From contig OZ246956.1 in assembly GCA_965232105.1 (NCBI GenBank), positions 4,596,408 through 4,660,407 on the forward strand: DNA of 64,000 bases. Direction: 5' to 3'. The DNA is from Thermoanaerobaculia bacterium (GTDB lineage: Bacteria > Acidobacteriota > Thermoanaerobaculia > Multivoradales > Multivoraceae). Shown in pieces: positions 32,672 through 42,320 of this stretch. Below the pieces are notes generated by a model, which was given only the letters and a program-made list of their open reading frames with translations, was not told where the DNA came from and did no database searches. The position numbers and the translations under genes were made by a program. The stretch's first letter is position 1; each line of letters begins with the position of its first letter.

Positions 32672-34867
32672 TTACGGGAGGCGGAACACGAACAGACCGT
32701 TGCCGCTGCGGGGATAGCGAATCTCCGGACTGACCCGGGCCGGTACGAAGCGCGGACTGCCGCCGCCGAGGCCGGTGGAAACCGCCACGTACTGGACCTC
32801 GTCGACCGCGTAGCTGATCGGGAAGCCCTGCACCGAGGTCGGCAGACGGGTTCCCCAGAGCTCCCGACCGGTTGCGGTGTCCCAGGCGCGGAACCGGCGG
32901 TCGATGTCGCCGGCAAAGACGATGCCTCCCCCGGTCGTCAGCGCCGCGGTCAGGAAGGCGGGCCGCTGCTCGACGCTCCAGACTTCCTCCATCGTGTCCA
33001 CGTCGTAGGCCGCCAGCTTGCCGAGACGGCCCTCCGTTCCCGGCATCTCGAACCACTTGCGGTCTGCTCCCTCGCCGCCCGATCCCTCCTCGAACCGGAT
33101 CTCGCGGCCCGAGATCTCGAGACAGCTCTGGCTCAGCGGCACGACCAGCAGCCCGTGCGCCGGGCTGTAGGACGATGCCTGCCAGTTGTGGCCGCCCGCC
33201 GTGCTGGGACACACCGACACCCACTCGCCGACCTCGGCCGAGGCGATGTCCTCCCGGTAGCGGACCTCGCCGGTTTCGCGGTCGATGTGGTCGAAGACGT
33301 TCTGGAACACCATCTCCCTGAGCGCGACGAAGGCGCCGTCGGACCGGTCGAGCTTCCAGAGGATCCCGTGCTTGCCGGAGGTGAGCAGGAGCCTCTGCCC
33401 GCCGCGGTCGATCAGGACCTGCTCGAACGCTTCGTCGAAGTCGAGCGCCTCGCCCGGCACGTGCTGGCGGTAGAAGGCGATCTCCCCGTCGCCGGGACGC
33501 AGCGCCAGGGTCGAGTTCGTGTACAGCACCTCGTGGTCGATCGTCAGGCCCCGGCTCGCCGGCACCCACGGCTTCGCCTGGGCCACCGGCCAGTAGAGCA
33601 GTTCGAGCGCCGGATCGTAGCTGCCCGGAATCCACGAATCGCCGCCGCCTCGCAACATGAGCGGCAGATCACCCCAGGTCTCGCCTCCCGGCTCCCCGGG
33701 CCGGGCGATCGTGTACGTGCGCCATCGTTCCTCACCGGTTTCCGCATCGTGGGCGGTGATGAAGCAACTGTCCTCGAAGTAGCGGATGCAGCCGTTGATC
33801 CCGTTGATCACGAGTCCGTTTCTTGCGCCGGTTCCTTGCCCCCCCGCGCCGCGATCGCCCTCGGCGTGGATGTCCGGTACGACGATCGGTCCGCTCGTGT
33901 TCCGGTAACCCTTTGCCGGATCGGCGATCCGGGTCTCCCACACCGGCCGTCCGCTCCGGGCGTCGAGCGCGAGCATCGCCGCGTCCTTGGTGGCGACGAA
34001 GACCTTGTCGCCCCAGATCGCGAGGTTGCGGAGCTGGTTGAACCCGCGCGCCGCATCGCCCTCCAGGCCGCGCCGGTACTCCCAGATCAGCGTACCGGTG
34101 TCGGCCTCCAGCGCCTGGATGATGTTGCGCGGGTTGGCGAGATACATCACTCCGCGGTAGACCAGCGGCGTCGGCTGGTTCACGCCGTCCGCCATCGCCC
34201 AGGACCAGGCCAGCCGCAGCTCGCCGACGTTGCCCGCGTCGACCTGATCGAGCGGGCTGTGGCCCTGGCCGTCGTAGGTGCGCCGGAACATCAGCCAGTC
34301 GCCGGGGGCGGGATCGAGCAGTATCTCGGCGGTGACCGGCTCGAAGTCCTCGATCTCGCGTTCGCCGGGAGGCCTGACGACCTCCTCCGCTGTCGCCGCG
34401 ACCGGGCCGCGGCGGTCCGCGACGGCGGCCGGGGCCGTGGAACCAGCCGACGCCGGCCCGCCATCCAGGCCCAGGGTGCCCAACACCGCACTCAAGCCCG
34501 GTGCATCGGCCACCAAGGCTTCCTCACCGGCCACGGCGCCGTTCGCCTGCAGCACGAAGGCGGCGAGATCGTACGCCTGTTGGGGACTCAGAGAGTTCCG
34601 GTCCTCCGGCGGCATCGTGACCCGCATCGTGTCTGCGAGGTCGACGACGGCGCCGGTTCCCCAGGCGCCCAAAAAGTCCGCGCCACGCAGTGGCGGCGCC
34701 TCGTTCGCACCCCCGATCAGGCTCGACAGGTGGCAATCGACGCAAACCTCTTCGTAGAGTGCCCGCCCGCGCTCCGCCTGCTCGGTGGTGTAGATGCGCA
34801 CCGGCGCCGCCGGCGGTTGCGCCGCCGCGCCTGCTGCGACCGCCGCGAGCAGGGTCGCCCACGCCAT
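32672..34867 (-). CDS. Cytochrome c-fused PQQ-dependent dehydrogenase
   Basis: N-terminal CVDCH heme motif; [27 protein letters not shown]; start 34867 or 34891. Confidence 0.88.
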
Positions 34868-34889
34868 CGACCCGCATACACTCCGCGCC

Positions 34890-35897
34890 ATGGCACGCAT
34901 ACTAGTTGTCGGCGGGACGGGGCCGACCGGACCTCTGATCGTCAACAGTTTCCTCGCCGCCGGCTTCGAAGTATCGATCTTCCACTCCGGACGCCACCCC
35001 GTGGACTTCGACGGTCCCGTGGAGCGCATCGTCGGCAACGCCCGCGACCGGGACGACATCCGCTCGAAGATCGCCTCCCGCGAGTGGGATCTCGCGGTGT
35101 GCATGTACGGCCGGTTGCGGACGCTGGCCGAAGAACTCGCGGGCAAGACGACGCGCCTCGTTGGCATCACGGGCCAGCCCGTCTACAAGGGCTCGCAGCC
35201 GCCGACGCCCGAGGGACGTATCCCGCTGCCGGTGCCGGAGTTCGCCCCGCGCCAGTACGACGCGAAGAACTACACCGGCAAGGTCGCGGCCGGCGAAGAT
35301 CAGCTCTTCGAGCAGCACGGTCGCGGCGACTTCGAGGTCGTCATCCTGCGGTACCCCGGGGTCTACGGCCCGCGGACGCCAATGAACCACGAGTGGGCGG
35401 TGGTCAAGCGCATCCTCGACCGGCGGCCCTTCATGATCCTCCCCCACGACGGGGTCACCTACTTCCAGCGCGGCTACGCCGAGAACCTGGCCCGGCTCGT
35501 GTTCCTGGCCTCCACCCGGCCCGAGGCGGCGGGTCAGGCCTTCAACGCCGGCGACGAACGGGTCATCAGTTGCCGGGCCGTGGCGGAGGTCATCGTCGAC
35601 GAACTCGACGCCGACATGGAGTTGATCGGCGTGCCGGCCCCGTTCTGCCGCGGCGTCTTTCCGCTGGCCGAGAAGTCGAACCAGATCCTCGATATGTCGA
35701 AGGCCCGGACGCTGCTCGGCTACCGCGACACGGTGGACCCGGAAACCGCGACCCGCGCCACCGCCCGCCACCTTGCCGCCGACCCGCCCGACGAGAAGGA
35801 TCTCTACGCCGCTGGCACGGGCCGCTTCGACTACGAGAACGAGGACCGGATCGTCGAGCGCTGGCGGCGGGCCGTTTCCGTGATGGCCGCTGACTGA
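34890..35897 (+). CDS. NAD-dependent epimerase/dehydratase family protein
   Basis: [11 protein letters not shown] Rossmann motif, YxxK-like [13 protein letters not shown]. Confidence 0.85.
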
Positions 35898-36995: not shown

Positions 36996-39602
36996 GTGCG
37001 ACACGGTCTCGCCCGATCGGCGCCACTCCGTCGCCGCCTGCTCCAGGGCTGGCAGCGACTGCGAACCGCGGCGCCTCCCCCTCTGCCCGAAACCACCCGG
37101 GAACAACAGTACGTCTTCCTGCGCTTCGCAGGTTTGTGGTGCCTTGCCGTAGCCCAGCCGATCTTCGACCTGGTGGGGCGCAGCCCCGAGTTCTTCATCG
37201 CCCACGACACGCAACCGGGCCAGCTTCTGGTCCTTGTCGCCCTGATCAGCCTCGGCGGTCCCGGCGCCTGCCTGCTGATTGTCCGTGCCGTCGGCGTCGC
37301 CGGGCCGCCCTGGCGCCGACGTGCCGAAGCCGCCCTCTACGCGGGCCTCGCCGGCCTCATCGTGCTGATCATCCTCAACCAATGGTCCAGCGTTCCGGCG
37401 CGCCCGTCGGTGGCTCTGGCGGCGCTGGTCGGCGCGGCCGCCGCCGCTGCGATTCGCCGGCTCGCGCCGGCACGGACATTCGCCACCTTCCTGGCCTCCG
37501 CCGTGCTTGTGGCGCCAACGGTCCTCCTGCTCAAGCCGGGCGTCAAACGGATCCTGGCGCCACCAAGAGAAGTTCAGCCGATCGAAGGCGTGCAACTCGC
37601 CGCCACGCCGCCCGTCGTCGTCGTGGTCTTCGATCAGTTTCAACTGGGCGCTCTGCTCGATCGACAGGCCCACATCGACCGCGCGGCCTTCCCCAACTTC
37701 GCGGCGCTGGCCGACAACGCCATCTGGTTCCGAAACGCGACCGCGGTGGCGGAGTACACAACCTACGCGCTGCCTGCCGTGCTGACGGGAATGCGCCCGT
37801 CGCAAGGTCTGTCGCCAACGGCGGCCGACCACCCGGCGAGTCTGTTCACGTTGCTCGGCGGGCACTACCGACTGCACATCCAGGAACCGTTGACCCAACT
37901 CTGTCCGGAGACGCTCTGCCCGCGCGAGGCGGCCGGCTTCGTCGCTTCGCTCGCGGCCATCCTGCAGGATCTGACGATCGCCTATCTGACCGTCGCCCTT
38001 CCGGAGGAGTTGGCGTCGCCGCTGCCCCCGGTGAACCAGTCCTGGAAGGACTTCGCCGCCAGCGGACCGGACGACCTTGTCGGCGCCCGCTGGGCGCAGG
38101 AGCGCTCCGGCGACCGGAGAAAGACCTTCGACGAGTTCATCTCCGCCATCGACCAGGCCGCGAGGCCCACGCTGCACTTCGCCCACGTTCTGCTGCCTCA
38201 CGAGCCGTTCATCTACCTGCCGACGGGCCAGCAATTCACCTTTCACCGTCGGACCAGCGGCCTGCGCAACGACATGTGGAACGCGGACCGATGGGCGGCG
38301 GCGCTCAACCACCATCGCTACCTCCTGCAGGTCGGATTCGTCGACGAGGTCCTTGGCAGGCTGGTCGCGCGCCTGCGAGAAGTGGGCATCTACGACGATG
38401 CCCTGATCGTCGTCACCGCGGACCACGGCTGCAGCCTCCGTCCCGGCCATTCGTTTCGGGCGCCGTCGCGCTCGACATTCGCGGACGTCGCAGCGGTGCC
38501 GCTGTTCCTCAAGATGCCGGCCCAGGTTCACGGTTCGGTCGTCGACGCCAACGTCGAGGTGATCGACATCGTCCCGACGCTGGCCGCCGCTCTCGGCATC
38601 GATCTGCCGTGGCCGGCCGACGGATCGAACGTCCTCGAACCGGGGCATGAACCGCGCCCCTCCAAGGTGCTGTTCCACGCCAACGCAAGTCGCCGGATGG
38701 AGGTTCCGGGCGATCAGCTCACCGCCCTTCGGGAGAGCGCGTCTTCCAAATTCGAGTGGCTGGACGACCGCGATCTGATGGCGGCGCCAACGCCGGAGCG
38801 ACGCTACGACGACCTGATCGGCAAGGCGGTCGATCCGATGCGGGCGGAGTCCGCCGCCGACCTGGAAGTCACCATGGACCCGCAACCGATGTTTCAGGAT
38901 CTCGATTTGAGCGACGACTTCCTGCCGGCCCACATCACCGGCGCCGTGGCGGCCCCCGGTGGCGCGCAGCCGACGCCGGCGCTGGCCATCGCGTTGAACG
39001 GCCGGGTGGCGGCGGTCACGCGCCCCTACCCCTTTCGGGTAGGCGGTCGAAACGGAATGTGGGAGGCGATCATCCCTTCTCGACGCCTCGTCGCCGGCGC
39101 GACCTCACTGGAGGTCCTGGAGGTGCGGGAGCACGCCGGAGGCAGCGGCTTCACTCTTGCCGCCACCGCCGCCGGCCAGGATACCGATCGTCCACTGAAC
39201 CTGATTCGACAAACGGAACTTGAGTTCCTGCACGGCTCGGCGACGGGCTTTCACGGCGAGGAGTGGGTCGGCGCGGCGCCGCTGCGCTGGACGGATGGGA
39301 ATGCGCGTCTGAACGTTCCGTTCGACCCGAGGAAGCCGCCGGCCGTTCTCGAAGTCGACGTGGCGCTGACCGGCAAGAGAAAGCGGCTCAGCATCACGGT
39401 CGACGACTGCAAGATCTTCGACCATGAGATCAATGAGCCGTGGAGTGCCGAGCTCAGCCTGGGGGACTGCCGTCTGAGTTCGCCTTCGCTGAGCGTGGCC
39501 CTGAGGAGCGATACCCACGTTCCGAACACGCACGACACCCGGGAGCTGGGGGTCGGAATCAGCCGCATCTCCCTGCTTGGCCCCGCCAGGAAGACACCAT
39601 GA
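36996..39602 (+). CDS. Membrane-anchored sulfatase-like / LTA-synthase-like (alkaline phosphatase superfamily) protein
   Basis: N-terminal TM helices; VVVVFDQ, YTTYALPAVLTG, LPHEP, VTADHG. Confidence 0.78.
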   Translation: MRHGLARSAPLRRRLLQGWQRLRTAAPPPLPETTREQQYVFLRFAGLWCLAVAQPIFDLVGRSPEFFIAHDTQPGQLLVLVALISLGGPGACLLIVRAVGVAGPPWRRRAEAALYAGLAGLIVLIILNQWSSVPARPSVALAALVGAAAAAAIRRLAPARTFATFLASAVLVAPTVLLLKPGVKRILAPPREVQPIEGVQLAATPPVVVVVFDQFQLGALLDRQAHIDRAAFPNFAALADNAIWFRNATAVAEYTTYALPAVLTGMRPSQGLSPTAADHPASLFTLLGGHYRLHIQEPLTQLCPETLCPREAAGFVASLAAILQDLTIAYLTVALPEELASPLPPVNQSWKDFAASGPDDLVGARWAQERSGDRRKTFDEFISAIDQAARPTLHFAHVLLPHEPFIYLPTGQQFTFHRRTSGLRNDMWNADRWAAALNHHRYLLQVGFVDEVLGRLVARLREVGIYDDALIVVTADHGCSLRPGHSFRAPSRSTFADVAAVPLFLKMPAQVHGSVVDANVEVIDIVPTLAAALGIDLPWPADGSNVLEPGHEPRPSKVLFHANASRRMEVPGDQLTALRESASSKFEWLDDRDLMAAPTPERRYDDLIGKAVDPMRAESAADLEVTMDPQPMFQDLDLSDDFLPAHITGAVAAPGGAQPTPALAIALNGRVAAVTRPYPFRVGGRNGMWEAIIPSRRLVAGATSLEVLEVREHAGGSGFTLAATAAGQDTDRPLNLIRQTELEFLHGSATGFHGEEWVGAAPLRWTDGNARLNVPFDPRKPPAVLEVDVALTGKRKRLSITVDDCKIFDHEINEPWSAELSLGDCRLSSPSLSVALRSDTHVPNTHDTRELGVGISRISLLGPARKTP

Positions 39603-39693: not shown

Positions 39694-40755
39694 ATGAGCT
39701 TCGAAGACCCCCGCTTTCCGGTTTCCGTCCGGAAGGATCTGACGACCGCGCTGCGCAGGTCGTGGGCCGACGTCGGCCGGCCCGGCGCCTGGTGGACCGG
39801 CCCTGAGCGCGTAGCCATCGCGGGTCTCGCGCGGGCCGAGCGCGTCCAGCGCAACGACCCGCCCTGGAGCCGCGACCGTTCGCAGCCGCTGCTGGCGCCG
39901 CTGCCTGAGAAAGCGATCGAGGCGGCGCGCAAGATCGGGGCGGATCCGACCCACCTCGACCGCGACTGGGCCGAAGCCACGATCGCCGGGCTCGGTGACG
40001 CGCTCTACGTCGAACTGGCCTCGGTCGTCGTGACGACGGTTGCCGCGGACGCCTTCTGCGAGGCAATGGGGATCGAGCACGAGCCTCTGCCCGAACCGGA
40101 GGCCGGCGAACCGACCCGGGAGCGCCCGGACGGCATGGGCGACATCGGCGCCTGGGTCCCGGTCCAGGTCGTCGACTGGAACCGGGCGAACGTCGCGCGT
40201 GCCCTGAGCCTGGTGCCGGAAGGCGTGCGCACCTTCTTCCGGATGGTCGCCGCCATGTACTCGGGAACGGCCACCGACTTCGAGAAAATGGTCTGGGACC
40301 ACCGGCCGCTATCCCGACCCCAGGTCGAGTTGCTGGCGGCGAGGGTTTCGGCCCTCAACCAGTGCTTCTACTGAACGACCGCGCACACCATGCTGCTCCG
40401 GGCGAGCAGCGACGCAGTCGGAGCGAAAGTCGACCTGAGCGCGGCGGTGGAAGATGCCGCTGACGGCGGCGTCGAGCACGGCGCGATCCTGACCGCCTTC
40501 GCGGAAGCCGTCGTCCGTGCCACGGACGAACTCGACGATGCCCGCGCACGCACCCTGGAAACCCTGGGCCCGGCAAAGTTCGTCGAAGCCGCCGCCACCG
40601 TCGGGATCTTCAACGGCCTCGTCCGCGTCGCCGACTCGACCGGCATCCCGAGCGACCCGATGACCCTGGAACGCACCGCCGACGTCCGTGGCGACCTCGG
40701 CTTCAATGACTGGGGCGGCGCCAGGTCATCCGGCGTCGCCGAGGCGCCCGCCTAG
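39694..40755 (+). CDS. AhpD/carboxymuconolactone-decarboxylase-like selenoprotein (Sec at TGA 40372-40374)
   Basis: LSRPQVELLAARVSALNQC-F-Y-TGA-TTAH continues in frame into the 40390-40755 ORF, rebuilding a CxxCxxxH-type motif; SECIS-like hairpin follows. Confidence 0.8.
40376..40420 (+). promoter_or_regulatory. Bacterial SECIS-like stem-loop
   Basis: Upper stem GCTGCTC/GAGCAGC (40392-40410), loop CGGGC starting 24 nt after UGA; lower stem CGAC.GCG/CGC.GTCG. Confidence 0.7.
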
Positions 40756-40764
40756 CGGCGCGAA

Positions 40765-42306
40765 CTAGCCCGCGAACTTCGGAACCGGCAGTTCCGCGAG
40801 GCGCCGGTGGCACATCTCGCAGCTCGACACGCCGCGGGCTTCGGCCGCGGGATCGAGTTCCTCGTCCACCCACCGCAGGAAGGAGCGATAGTTCCCGAAC
40901 ACGGTTTCGGACTTCGTACCGACCGCGCCAAGGTCGAAGTGGGGCGAGTCGACCTCGGCGGCGAACGGACAGGCGTGGAACCGGCCCTTCGTCGTCAGCA
41001 CCGGGAAGCACCGCACGCAGCGGGCGCCCATGCCGTGGTACTCCGACTCGCGATCCCGGTCGAACTCCTGCTCCGCCCCGCCTCCGGCGTGGAAGAGCAC
41101 CTTGTAACCCTGGAAGATGCGGTTCGGATTCTCGCGCGCCCAGTCCTCGAGGCGCTCCCGCGCATAGCGCGGCATCGGTTTGGCGTCGCGGCCGTGGTAG
41201 ATCGAGTAGTTGAGAACCGCTTCGCTCTTCGGGTCCGACTCGAGAATCGAGATCAGCTTCTCCGCCTGGATGCCGTTCGAAAACACGGTGATCAGGCCGG
41301 TGAAGCCACGCCCTCGCACGTAGCGCATCGCGGCGACGATCTCGGGCGTGTGCAGCGTGGGCTCGCCGCCGTAGAACTTCAGGTTGCCGTCGGCGGCCAG
41401 GGCGTCGAGCGCCTGGTCGAGCACCTCCGGCGTGTAGGCCTCGTACCACCCATTCGGCGAGCCCTGGATCGTGCACCAGGAACAGTCCCGGTTGCAGAAG
41501 TTGCCCTCGTAGAGGTGGAGTTCCCGCAGTTCGCCGTCCGCCTCGGCGAAGTGCTCCACCGGCTCATGGAACGTGATCGGGCCGATGTTCGGGTCACGGT
41601 GCGTGTCGTTCAGGCCCCAGTCGTAGGTGTTGTAGACGACTTCGTAAGCAGCGATCCGCTCTGCATCGAGGCCAGCGTGCTCGGCGACGAAACCCAGCAC
41701 GCCCCGCCGGTACTCCTCCGTCGAGCCGGCGCCGCCGGCGAAGTCCTCCGCGTACATCCGGAAGATGCGGGAGATGAAGATCTTCCCCGCCTCGTGGTCC
41801 ACCCGGCAGTTCCACGGGTTGGCCAGGAACGCCTCCGTCGCCTGGCGCAGCGTGTCGCGAAGACCTTCGCCGCGGTAGGCCGAGGGCCGCACCGCCGGAC
41901 AGCCGTTCGCGCCGCAGTTGATCGCGAAGTGAATCCGGGGCTCCGCGAAGTCCGAGCGCAGAATCTCGTGCTCGATGTCATCCAGACTGAGCGAGGCGCC
42001 GCCCGCGATGTGGCGGCGGCGCTGGAAGAACTGTCCGTTCCGCGTCTTCCAGACCGACCGGATCGGGTACTCGTCGACGATCGCGTCCAGGGTGAACGCG
42101 TTGTATGCGTTGATCCAGTACGCCAGCCCCTCCTCCTCGCTGCCGAAGAGTTCGGGACGGCTGTCCGGAGACGCCGCGCCGAGACCGACGACGAACTCCT
42201 TGAGCAGCCCGCGCCGCGCCGCGAGACGCTCGTAGTCGACCTTGCCGTCCTCGGCGACGACCTCGGCCAGCAGCCGGTCCCACGCGTCGTAGGAGAACGT
42301 GTCCAT
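40765..42306 (-). CDS. DUF547 - radical SAM fusion protein
   Basis: N-half: VDY, YWINAYNA, LDDIEH, PRIHFAINC...CP, YDWGLND; C-half: CNRDCSWC, GGEP, C-terminal CVRC...CPF...CEMC. Confidence 0.85.
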   Translation of the reverse strand: MDTFSYDAWDRLLAEVVAEDGKVDYERLAARRGLLKEFVVGLGAASPDSRPELFGSEEEGLAYWINAYNAFTLDAIVDEYPIRSVWKTRNGQFFQRRRHIAGGASLSLDDIEHEILRSDFAEPRIHFAINCGANGCPAVRPSAYRGEGLRDTLRQATEAFLANPWNCRVDHEAGKIFISRIFRMYAEDFAGGAGSTEEYRRGVLGFVAEHAGLDAERIAAYEVVYNTYDWGLNDTHRDPNIGPITFHEPVEHFAEADGELRELHLYEGNFCNRDCSWCTIQGSPNGWYEAYTPEVLDQALDALAADGNLKFYGGEPTLHTPEIVAAMRYVRGRGFTGLITVFSNGIQAEKLISILESDPKSEAVLNYSIYHGRDAKPMPRYARERLEDWARENPNRIFQGYKVLFHAGGGAEQEFDRDRESEYHGMGARCVRCFPVLTTKGRFHACPFAAEVDSPHFDLGAVGTKSETVFGNYRSFLRWVDEELDPAAEARGVSSCEMCHRRLAELPVPKFAG

Positions 42307-42320
42307 CAACGCCCTGGGAA

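Follow-up and report, generated by a model that had tools for sequence, protein, structure and literature searches.

AhpD-like selenoproteins, in which selenocysteine (Sec, U) is part of a CxxU motif, are described as abundant in the Global Ocean Sampling (GOS) data (PMC2398784). The GOS paper names two single-domain types, "AhpD-like 1" (COG2128/TIGR01926) and "AhpD-like 2" (PF02627). Among the Cys forms with solved structures are 2pfx, 2prr and 6k40. A further selenoprotein, "hypothetical protein 1", was introduced in 2005 as part of the Sargasso Sea selenoproteome, with four sequences, a conserved CXXU and no evidence as to its function (PMC1088965), and a table of a 2026 review equates this protein with NF041238 (PMC13188914). 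NF041238 (AhpD_rel_CFYUT) is a curated NCBIfam equivalog for an "alkylhydroperoxidase-related (seleno)protein". To our knowledge, the family has so far not been the subject of bench work. Here, a member of NF041238 was analyzed that is encoded by positions 39694-40755 (+ strand) of a 64,000-nt stretch of DNA from a Thermoanaerobaculia bacterium (contig OZ246956.1). This whole stretch is referred to as the window, and coordinates are positions within it, on the + strand, unless indicated otherwise.

An earlier note on this DNA had presented the gene as a hidden selenoprotein. This wording was too strong, since the curated NCBI model is named after the motif of the family and close relatives in NCBI records, at 85% identity, already bear the name AhpD_rel_CFYUT. 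With a report in 2005 and a curated model, the family is already known as a selenoprotein and the gene is not new, so that the biological gain is small. A modest gain lies in the documentation of its selenocysteine insertion sequence (SECIS) hairpin across phyla, in a high-confidence predicted fold with two lobes that resembles that of Sestrins, and in the association of a paralog with a peroxiredoxin-like selenoprotein.

Gene structure and family membership

An open reading frame (ORF) that starts with an ATG at 39694-39696 closes with AAC CAG TGC TTC TAC TGA, in which the TGA occupies 40372-40374. Past the TGA, the frame continues as ACG ACC GCG CAC ACC ATG, with this next ATG (40390-40392) located 15 nt downstream, and closes at a TAG at 40753-40755. 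Apart from the TGA, no further stops or frameshifts were found in the frame from 39694 to 40755. With the TGA read as U, it comprises 353 codons plus the TAG and encodes a protein of 353 residues that includes C224-F225-Y226-U227-T-T-A-H231 (CxxUxxxH; codons at 40363-40386). The codons TGC TTC TAC TGA ACG at 40363-40377 thereby yield the C-F-Y-U-T motif of NF041238. The elements from which the earlier note had started, namely an ORF ending in NQCFY-TGA, an in-frame ORF 15 nt further on and the read-through motif C-F-Y-U-T-T-A-H, were all recovered.

The read-through protein matched NF041238 with 339.1 bits (cut-off 175, E 3.2e-101), its residues 12-340 aligning with positions 1-355 of the 357 profile positions, and in a scan of the whole genome the window copy scored 330.3 bits with one TGA inside the match. 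A match to the Pfam CMD domain (PF02627) at residues 198-237 straddled the TGA; it reached 31.8 bits in the read-through protein, above the cut-off of 23, and 19.6 bits when the first ORF was searched on its own. The same domain was matched by all 28 members of a family alignment. TIGR00778 was also matched, as was TIGR01926, the latter with 41.9 bits and therefore below its cut-off of 81.8, which makes the window protein a relative rather than a member of TIGR01926. In motif, length and in-frame TGA, the window copy showed no family-defining difference from NF041238. Single-domain AhpD-like proteins, which measure approximately 180-200 aa, share the CxxU/CxxC...H motif and the AhpD fold with the C-terminal lobe of the window protein, whereas the latter carries an extra lobe of approximately 146 aa in front. 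The end-to-end NF041238 match and the CMD match across the TGA bore out the proposal of a single 353-aa selenoprotein gene. We therefore have high confidence that 39694-40755 is one gene for an NF041238 selenoprotein in which UGA 40372-40374 encodes Sec; in annotation, two "hypothetical" ORFs are to be merged into one selenoprotein gene.

If, instead, the UGA at 40372 were a true stop, the locus would contain two genes, one for a 226-aa protein and a second one, starting from ATG 40390, for a protein of 121 aa. Both ORFs are indeed listed under translation table 11, and public gene calls of relatives stop at the same place. Among the best 120 relatives in the protein database, 119 were fragments of 199-271 aa that covered at most 64% of the query, and the ten fragments that were aligned all ended at ...CFY, in line with the expectation that standard callers split this gene. 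In addition, an in-frame ATG, GTG or TTG occurred within six codons past the TGA in 62 of 81 relatives, an observation that counts against a single gene. However, the other 19 relatives lacked any nearby start codon, and in 23 of the 81 the codon aligned to ATG 40390 was a non-start codon (ACG, GGG, ACA, TCG or other). Moreover, the TGA is crossed by the CMD/AhpD domain and by the full-length curated model. The second piece would contain the active-site His as well as half of the fold, and for this piece, taken alone, no family match was found (Pfam, best E 0.3). The one full-length match among the 120 relatives, P0118, is a continuous 367-aa homolog that aligns with 95% of the query at 38% identity, and it carries a Cys at the position of U227 (NQCFYCTSAH), the substitution for which the earlier note had suggested that homologs be searched. 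Two separate genes were therefore considered very unlikely.

Conservation of the UGA, Sec machinery and the downstream hairpin

The genome from which the window derives (4.9 Mb, one contig, 99.3% complete) contains two NF041238 copies, each with one in-frame TGA. Matches above the NF041238 cut-off were found in 23 of 41 related genomes, all of which belong to the genus of the window (22 of its 24 other genomes and the window's own genome); the two genomes of the genus that lacked a match have a completeness of 94 and 97%. Each of the 27 matches contained exactly one TGA. When 300 genomes were drawn evenly from the phylum, NF041238 occurred in 4 of 4 genomes of the window's genus and in 0 of 296 others, with a TGA in 7 of 7 rows. 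A scan of species-representative genomes gave 542 loci, of which the best 80 were fetched and analyzed. According to their record titles, these 80 loci originate from Thermoanaerobaculia/Candidatus Multivorans, Myxococcota, Acidimicrobiia, Gammaproteobacteria, Spirochaetaceae, Opitutales, Dehalococcoidia and Binatia, and thus represent eight or more groups at the level of phylum or class. The pattern N-[EQ]-C-F-Y-TGA-x-x-x-H was present in all of them, and the codon was TGA in 82 of 82 motif matches, two loci having given two matches each. The earlier note had regarded homologs that are consistently split, or that end in TAA or TAG here, as evidence against its proposal; only TGA was found at this position, never TAA or TAG.

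Two side observations were made on related sequences. At two of the 80 loci (L109 and L115, both Dehalococcoidia records), the tblastn match, with a CFY-U of its own, was found approximately 1.1 kb upstream of the analyzed CFY-TGA motif; this arrangement suggests two family genes in tandem. In genomes from other families of the same order (G025-G040), short sub-threshold matches of approximately 190 aa aligned with the C-terminal half of the model, and the majority of them had one in-frame TGA (for example, G039:C27:26816-27364 and G034:C2:822261-822815). These are probably single-domain AhpD-like selenoproteins.

The distribution of the TGA also bears on the possibility that a Cys codon mutated to TGA and that the gene is dead. 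A single transversion would convert TGC or TGT to TGA, and P0118 demonstrates that a Cys-form homolog exists. However, a pseudogene is difficult to reconcile with a TGA that is fixed among the matches in related genomes and among the motif matches across many phyla. Conservation of the protein also extends past the TGA, with a mean column identity of 50% over the full length of the 28-member alignment and invariant residues on both sides, and the frame is otherwise intact. The probability of a pseudogene was consequently judged to be close to nil.

Profile searches of the genome detected selA (345 bits), selD (255 bits) and selB (320 bits, or 352.6 bits when its C-terminal piece was included), all above their curated cut-offs, while aragorn identified a tRNA-SeC with anticodon tca. 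The genome thus encodes the complete set of selA, selB, selC and selD, whose absence would, according to the earlier note, have spoken against a selenoprotein. The upstream neighbor of the window gene, which encodes 868 aa, closes with a TGA at 39600-39602, indicating that TGA is otherwise a normal stop codon in this genome. With the window gene, its paralog and a peroxiredoxin (Prx)-like gene, at least three selenoprotein genes were seen in this Sec user. As a side observation, its SelD is part of a 772-aa fusion protein that begins with a pyridine nucleotide-disulphide oxidoreductase domain (L010:1396-3711, - strand; G000:C1 ~2633931-2634857) and resembles the Ndh-SelD fusions mentioned in the GOS paper (PMC2398784).

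Insertion of an amino acid other than Sec, for instance if near-cognate read-through placed Cys or Trp at the codon or if the code were changed genome-wide, would be compatible with the sequence taken alone. A genome-wide change is contradicted by the TGA that terminates the upstream gene. Insertion of another amino acid also fits poorly with a genome that encodes the full Sec machinery, with the conserved hairpin at SECIS distance described below and with the location of the codon at the redox Cys of a CxxC motif, a classic position for Sec/Cys pairs. Such recoding was regarded as highly improbable.

Bacterial SECIS elements are stem-loops located just 3' of the UGA, with a small apical loop that contains a G (PMC1088965). 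Minimum-free-energy folding of 40360-40450 (91 nt) yielded a hairpin at 40392-40410, in which GCUGCUC (40392-40398) is paired with GAGCAGC (40404-40410) around the loop CGGGC (40399-40403). The UGA is separated from the stem by 17 nt and from the loop by 24 nt (40375-40398), and G40400 is the second base of the loop; the description of this stem-loop in the earlier note was exact. With its 7-bp stem, its 5-nt G-containing loop and its distance of 24 nt from the UGA, the hairpin agrees with the bacterial SECIS description. Because the folding energy of this stretch was not significant, comparative support was needed. An ungapped alignment was made of 81 sequences (the window and the 80 loci) over 66 columns, comprising the TGA with 9 nt upstream and 54 nt downstream. 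RNAalifold predicted the same seven pairs from these 81 sequences, and G40400 was invariant in 81 of 81. Standard pairs occurred in 98.8% of 497 cells, a share that dropped to 17.9-63.2% when the partner was slid by 1-3 columns, and none of 500 shuffles reached the observed paired percentage or covariation score. Among the distinct sequences, 63 had C-G as the loop-closing pair, 7 had U-A and 1 had U-G; both sides of this pair are third codon positions. At third codon positions, the majority fraction was 0.90-1.00 within the stem vs. 0.36-0.57 in the six codons that follow.

Several observations weigh against the interpretation of this hairpin as a SECIS and of the UGA as a Sec codon. The folding energy of the 91-nt stretch is ordinary for G+C-rich DNA (z = -0.47), with 58 of 200 shuffles folding as well. 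Covariation is thin, as a double change occurred in only 2 of the 7 pairs and 56 of 500 shuffles reached that count. The stem also codes for a conserved peptide, LLRASS, and part of its conservation is therefore protein constraint. An Rfam scan of 40300-40500 returned no SECIS family at E <= 10, only four chance-level rows, from a library that showed no sign of a model for this type of bacterial hairpin. Finally, Sec insertion at UGA 40372-40374 is what we infer from the sequence. The silent-site pattern and the compensatory pair nevertheless argue for an RNA constraint in addition to the protein constraint. By the standard bacterial Sec pathway, the hairpin at 40392-40410 would be the SECIS bound by SelB in complex with GTP and Sec-tRNA(Sec), and SelB would deliver Sec at UGA 40372-40374 instead of termination taking place.

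Active site and predicted fold

The Glu ... CxxC ... His constellation of the AhpD/CMD superfamily is present in the window protein, its second Cys being replaced by Sec. E212, C224, F225, Y226, position 227 and H231 were invariant in 28 of 28 family members. Glu212 (codon at 40327-40329), a candidate proton-relay residue, precedes Cys224 by 12 residues, a Tyr is located between the two redox residues and the His follows four residues after the second of them. The arrangement E212/C224/Y226/U227/H231 is the same as that of Glu74/Cys86/Tyr88/Cys89/His93 in YP_296737.1, as given in PMC4674687. Mycobacterium tuberculosis AhpD (1gu9) shares Glu ... CxxC ... His with the C-terminal lobe of the window protein, from which it differs in having a second Cys where the window protein has Sec, and in lacking the arrangement of two lobes in one chain. 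The roles of the Glu ... CxxC ... His residues are known from AhpD, in which the second Cys of CxxC is the nucleophile. By analogy with AhpD-type enzymes, Sec227 would take the place of this nucleophilic Cys and attack a peroxide or an oxidized partner thiol. In a second step, the intermediate would be resolved by Cys224, giving a selenenylsulfide that is re-reduced by a cellular reductant. A role as thiol/selenol peroxide or disulfide reductase in antioxidant defense appears most likely on the basis of this analogy.

AlphaFold2, run with the 28-sequence family alignment, gave an all-helical model with a mean predicted local distance difference test score (pLDDT) of 90.0 and a predicted template modeling score of 0.91. 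The model predicts two AhpD-like helical lobes in one chain, of which only the C-terminal one retains the AhpD redox motif. The N-terminal lobe (aa 1-146; 39694-40131) would be a helical domain of degenerate AhpD/CMD-like type that lacks a redox motif in the window copy, and the C-terminal lobe (aa 147-353; 40132-40752) an AhpD-like core that contains the active site. Matches of the C-terminal lobe to TIGR01926 and TIGR00778 were accompanied by matches of the family profile, over approximately residues 168-318, to AhpD-like proteins in the PDB (6k40, E 7.5e-15; 2pfx, E 3e-13). A Foldseek search against the PDB gave no row at E <= 0.001, the best being AhpD-like (E 7e-3) and Sestrin2 (approximately 2e-2).

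In an exhaustive VIA-align comparison of the model with 48,161 PDB representatives, the best match was human Sestrin2 (5cuf_A; Z 16.6, root-mean-square deviation (rmsd) 3.5 Å, 241 aligned residues, 11% identity), with model residues 1-318 placed on chain residues 76-474. It was followed by the tetrabromopyrrole debrominase Bmp8 (6ohi; Z 12.6, rmsd 2.9 Å, 168 aligned, model residues 89-332, 14% identity), a CMD-fold thiol enzyme that has only the CMD fold in common with the window protein. Matches were also obtained with the peroxidase-related protein 2pfx (Z 12.2, rmsd 2.9 Å, 165 aligned, model residues 150-329) and with M. tuberculosis AhpD (Z 8.8, rmsd 2.8 Å, 135 aligned, model residues 164-319).

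The earlier note had proposed a long CMD-like extension at the N-terminus. At the level of sequence families, this proposal found no counterpart, as the N-terminal 146 residues matched a Pfam family in 0 of 16 members, while at the level of the fold it held. Modeled alone with AlphaFold2, the N-terminal lobe reached a pLDDT of 92.5, and its eight highest VIA-align matches among the 48,161 chains were 2pfx (Z 8.3; rmsd 3.5, 115 aligned), 2gmy (8.1), Bmp8 (6.9), 3lvy (6.7), 1gu9 (6.0), 4g9q (5.3), 2q0t (4.7) and Sestrin2 (4.5). A Z of approximately 8 is moderate for a helical domain, by the tool's own caution, and the AhpD/CMD fold was assigned because these top rows consist exclusively of that fold, with unrelated proteins following at Z <= 4.2. 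A weak similarity between the N-terminal and C-terminal lobes was detected with hhalign (probability 39%, E 3e-4, 53 columns), which is suggestive, but not proof, of an origin of the two lobes as sequence duplicates.

In the alignment columns that correspond to window residues 36-65, an N-terminal CxxC is kept in 4 of the 28 members (P0118, the paralog of the same genome at L013, L105 and L114), whereas the window protein has a 7-residue gap there. The window copy thus belongs to a sub-group of NF041238 whose N-terminal lobe lost this motif. The pattern fits a degenerate second AhpD-like domain, and some family members may have two redox centers.

Sestrin2 is described, in PMC4674687, as a pseudo-symmetric (twofold) pair of AhpD-like domains, the N-terminal one of which is the peroxidase. 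Like Sestrin2, the window protein is predicted to be a single chain of two AhpD-like lobes. The redox-active lobe, however, is N-terminal with a single Cys in Sestrin2 and C-terminal with a Cys and a Sec in the window protein. Membership in the Sestrin family was rejected, since none of the 28 family members matched the Pfam Sestrin model (PA26) at E <= 1, which leaves a likeness in fold only. Because Sestrin2 outranked every single-domain bacterial AhpD-like protein among the PDB representatives, NF041238 could conceivably be a bacterial, Sec-using counterpart of the Sestrin architecture, with a fused arrangement that is homologous rather than convergent; based on a predicted model, we consider this possible but doubtful. 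If true, the family would mark a prokaryotic root of Sestrins and offer a tractable bacterial model of Sestrin peroxidase chemistry. A literature search for a link between sestrin, AhpD and selenocysteine returned only reviews that, judged by title, were unrelated.

Gene neighborhood, paralog and expression

The upstream neighbor on the same strand is the 868-aa gene mentioned above, which encodes a sulfatase-family membrane protein. The downstream neighbor (40765-42309, - strand) is convergent, and its product is a fusion of a DUF547 and a radical SAM domain. Clustering of flanking ORFs from the 80 loci yielded only lineage-specific groups, namely a short-chain dehydrogenase that was present at 12 loci and an enoyl-CoA hydratase that was present at 6. 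As no flanking gene was common across lineages, conserved neighbors were rejected as a clue to the function of the window copy, and a functional link to the DUF547/radical-SAM gene was likewise rejected.

The second NF041238 copy of the genome (G000:C1:2023777-2024829; 427 bits, one TGA) is immediately preceded by an ORF whose product combines AhpC-TSA and DsbD_N domains. This Prx-like ORF has an in-frame TGA of its own, in ...SAVW-U-PPC... (UxxC motif). The Prx-like gene and the paralog were paired in all five paralog loci that were fetched (L013, L015, L016, L017 and L036) and in no window-type locus. Pairs of Prx-like and AhpD-like genes are mentioned in the GOS paper (PMC2398784) and in the 2026 review (PMC13188914). 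The pairing is the best hint that the family may work with a peroxiredoxin-type partner, and it provides a partner hypothesis for NF041238. An adjacent peroxiredoxin gene, as in AhpC/AhpD-type peroxidase systems, is thus present for the paralog and absent for the window copy.

Two points count against the role proposed for the window copy. No Prx-like gene was found beside it or anywhere in the window, nor was an adjacent AhpC. Its neighbors are not conserved, the sulfatase-family gene being present in 1 of the 80 loci and the DUF547/radical-SAM gene in 3. Its proposed substrate and partner are therefore inferred by analogy.

Two side observations concern the Prx-like gene. The span of the pair (G000:C1:2022564-2024829; L013 ~288-2583, + strand) looks like a two-selenoprotein operon. 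A second homolog of the Prx-like/DsbD_N protein is encoded elsewhere in the genome (G000:C1:1379495-1380601), with 38% identity over 374 aa.

A 225-nt contig found in the RNA libraries X17 and X18 extends from 40273 to 40497 and includes the TGA in unchanged form. The contigs of X17 and X18 are identical and may represent one data set filed twice; the contig of X20, with only 11 nt upstream of the TGA, was not counted as bridging. The four RNA-library runs (X17-X20) gave only short contigs of near-identical sequence, and parts of the gene that they leave uncovered carry no meaning. These contigs, which could be carried-over DNA and do not show a transcript or its ends, are a weak hint of expression.

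Elsewhere in the window, an 832-aa ORF at 32672-35170 (- strand) combines the beta-propeller of a pyrroloquinoline quinone (PQQ)-dependent dehydrogenase with a cytochrome c domain and looks like an ordinary quinohaemoprotein dehydrogenase.

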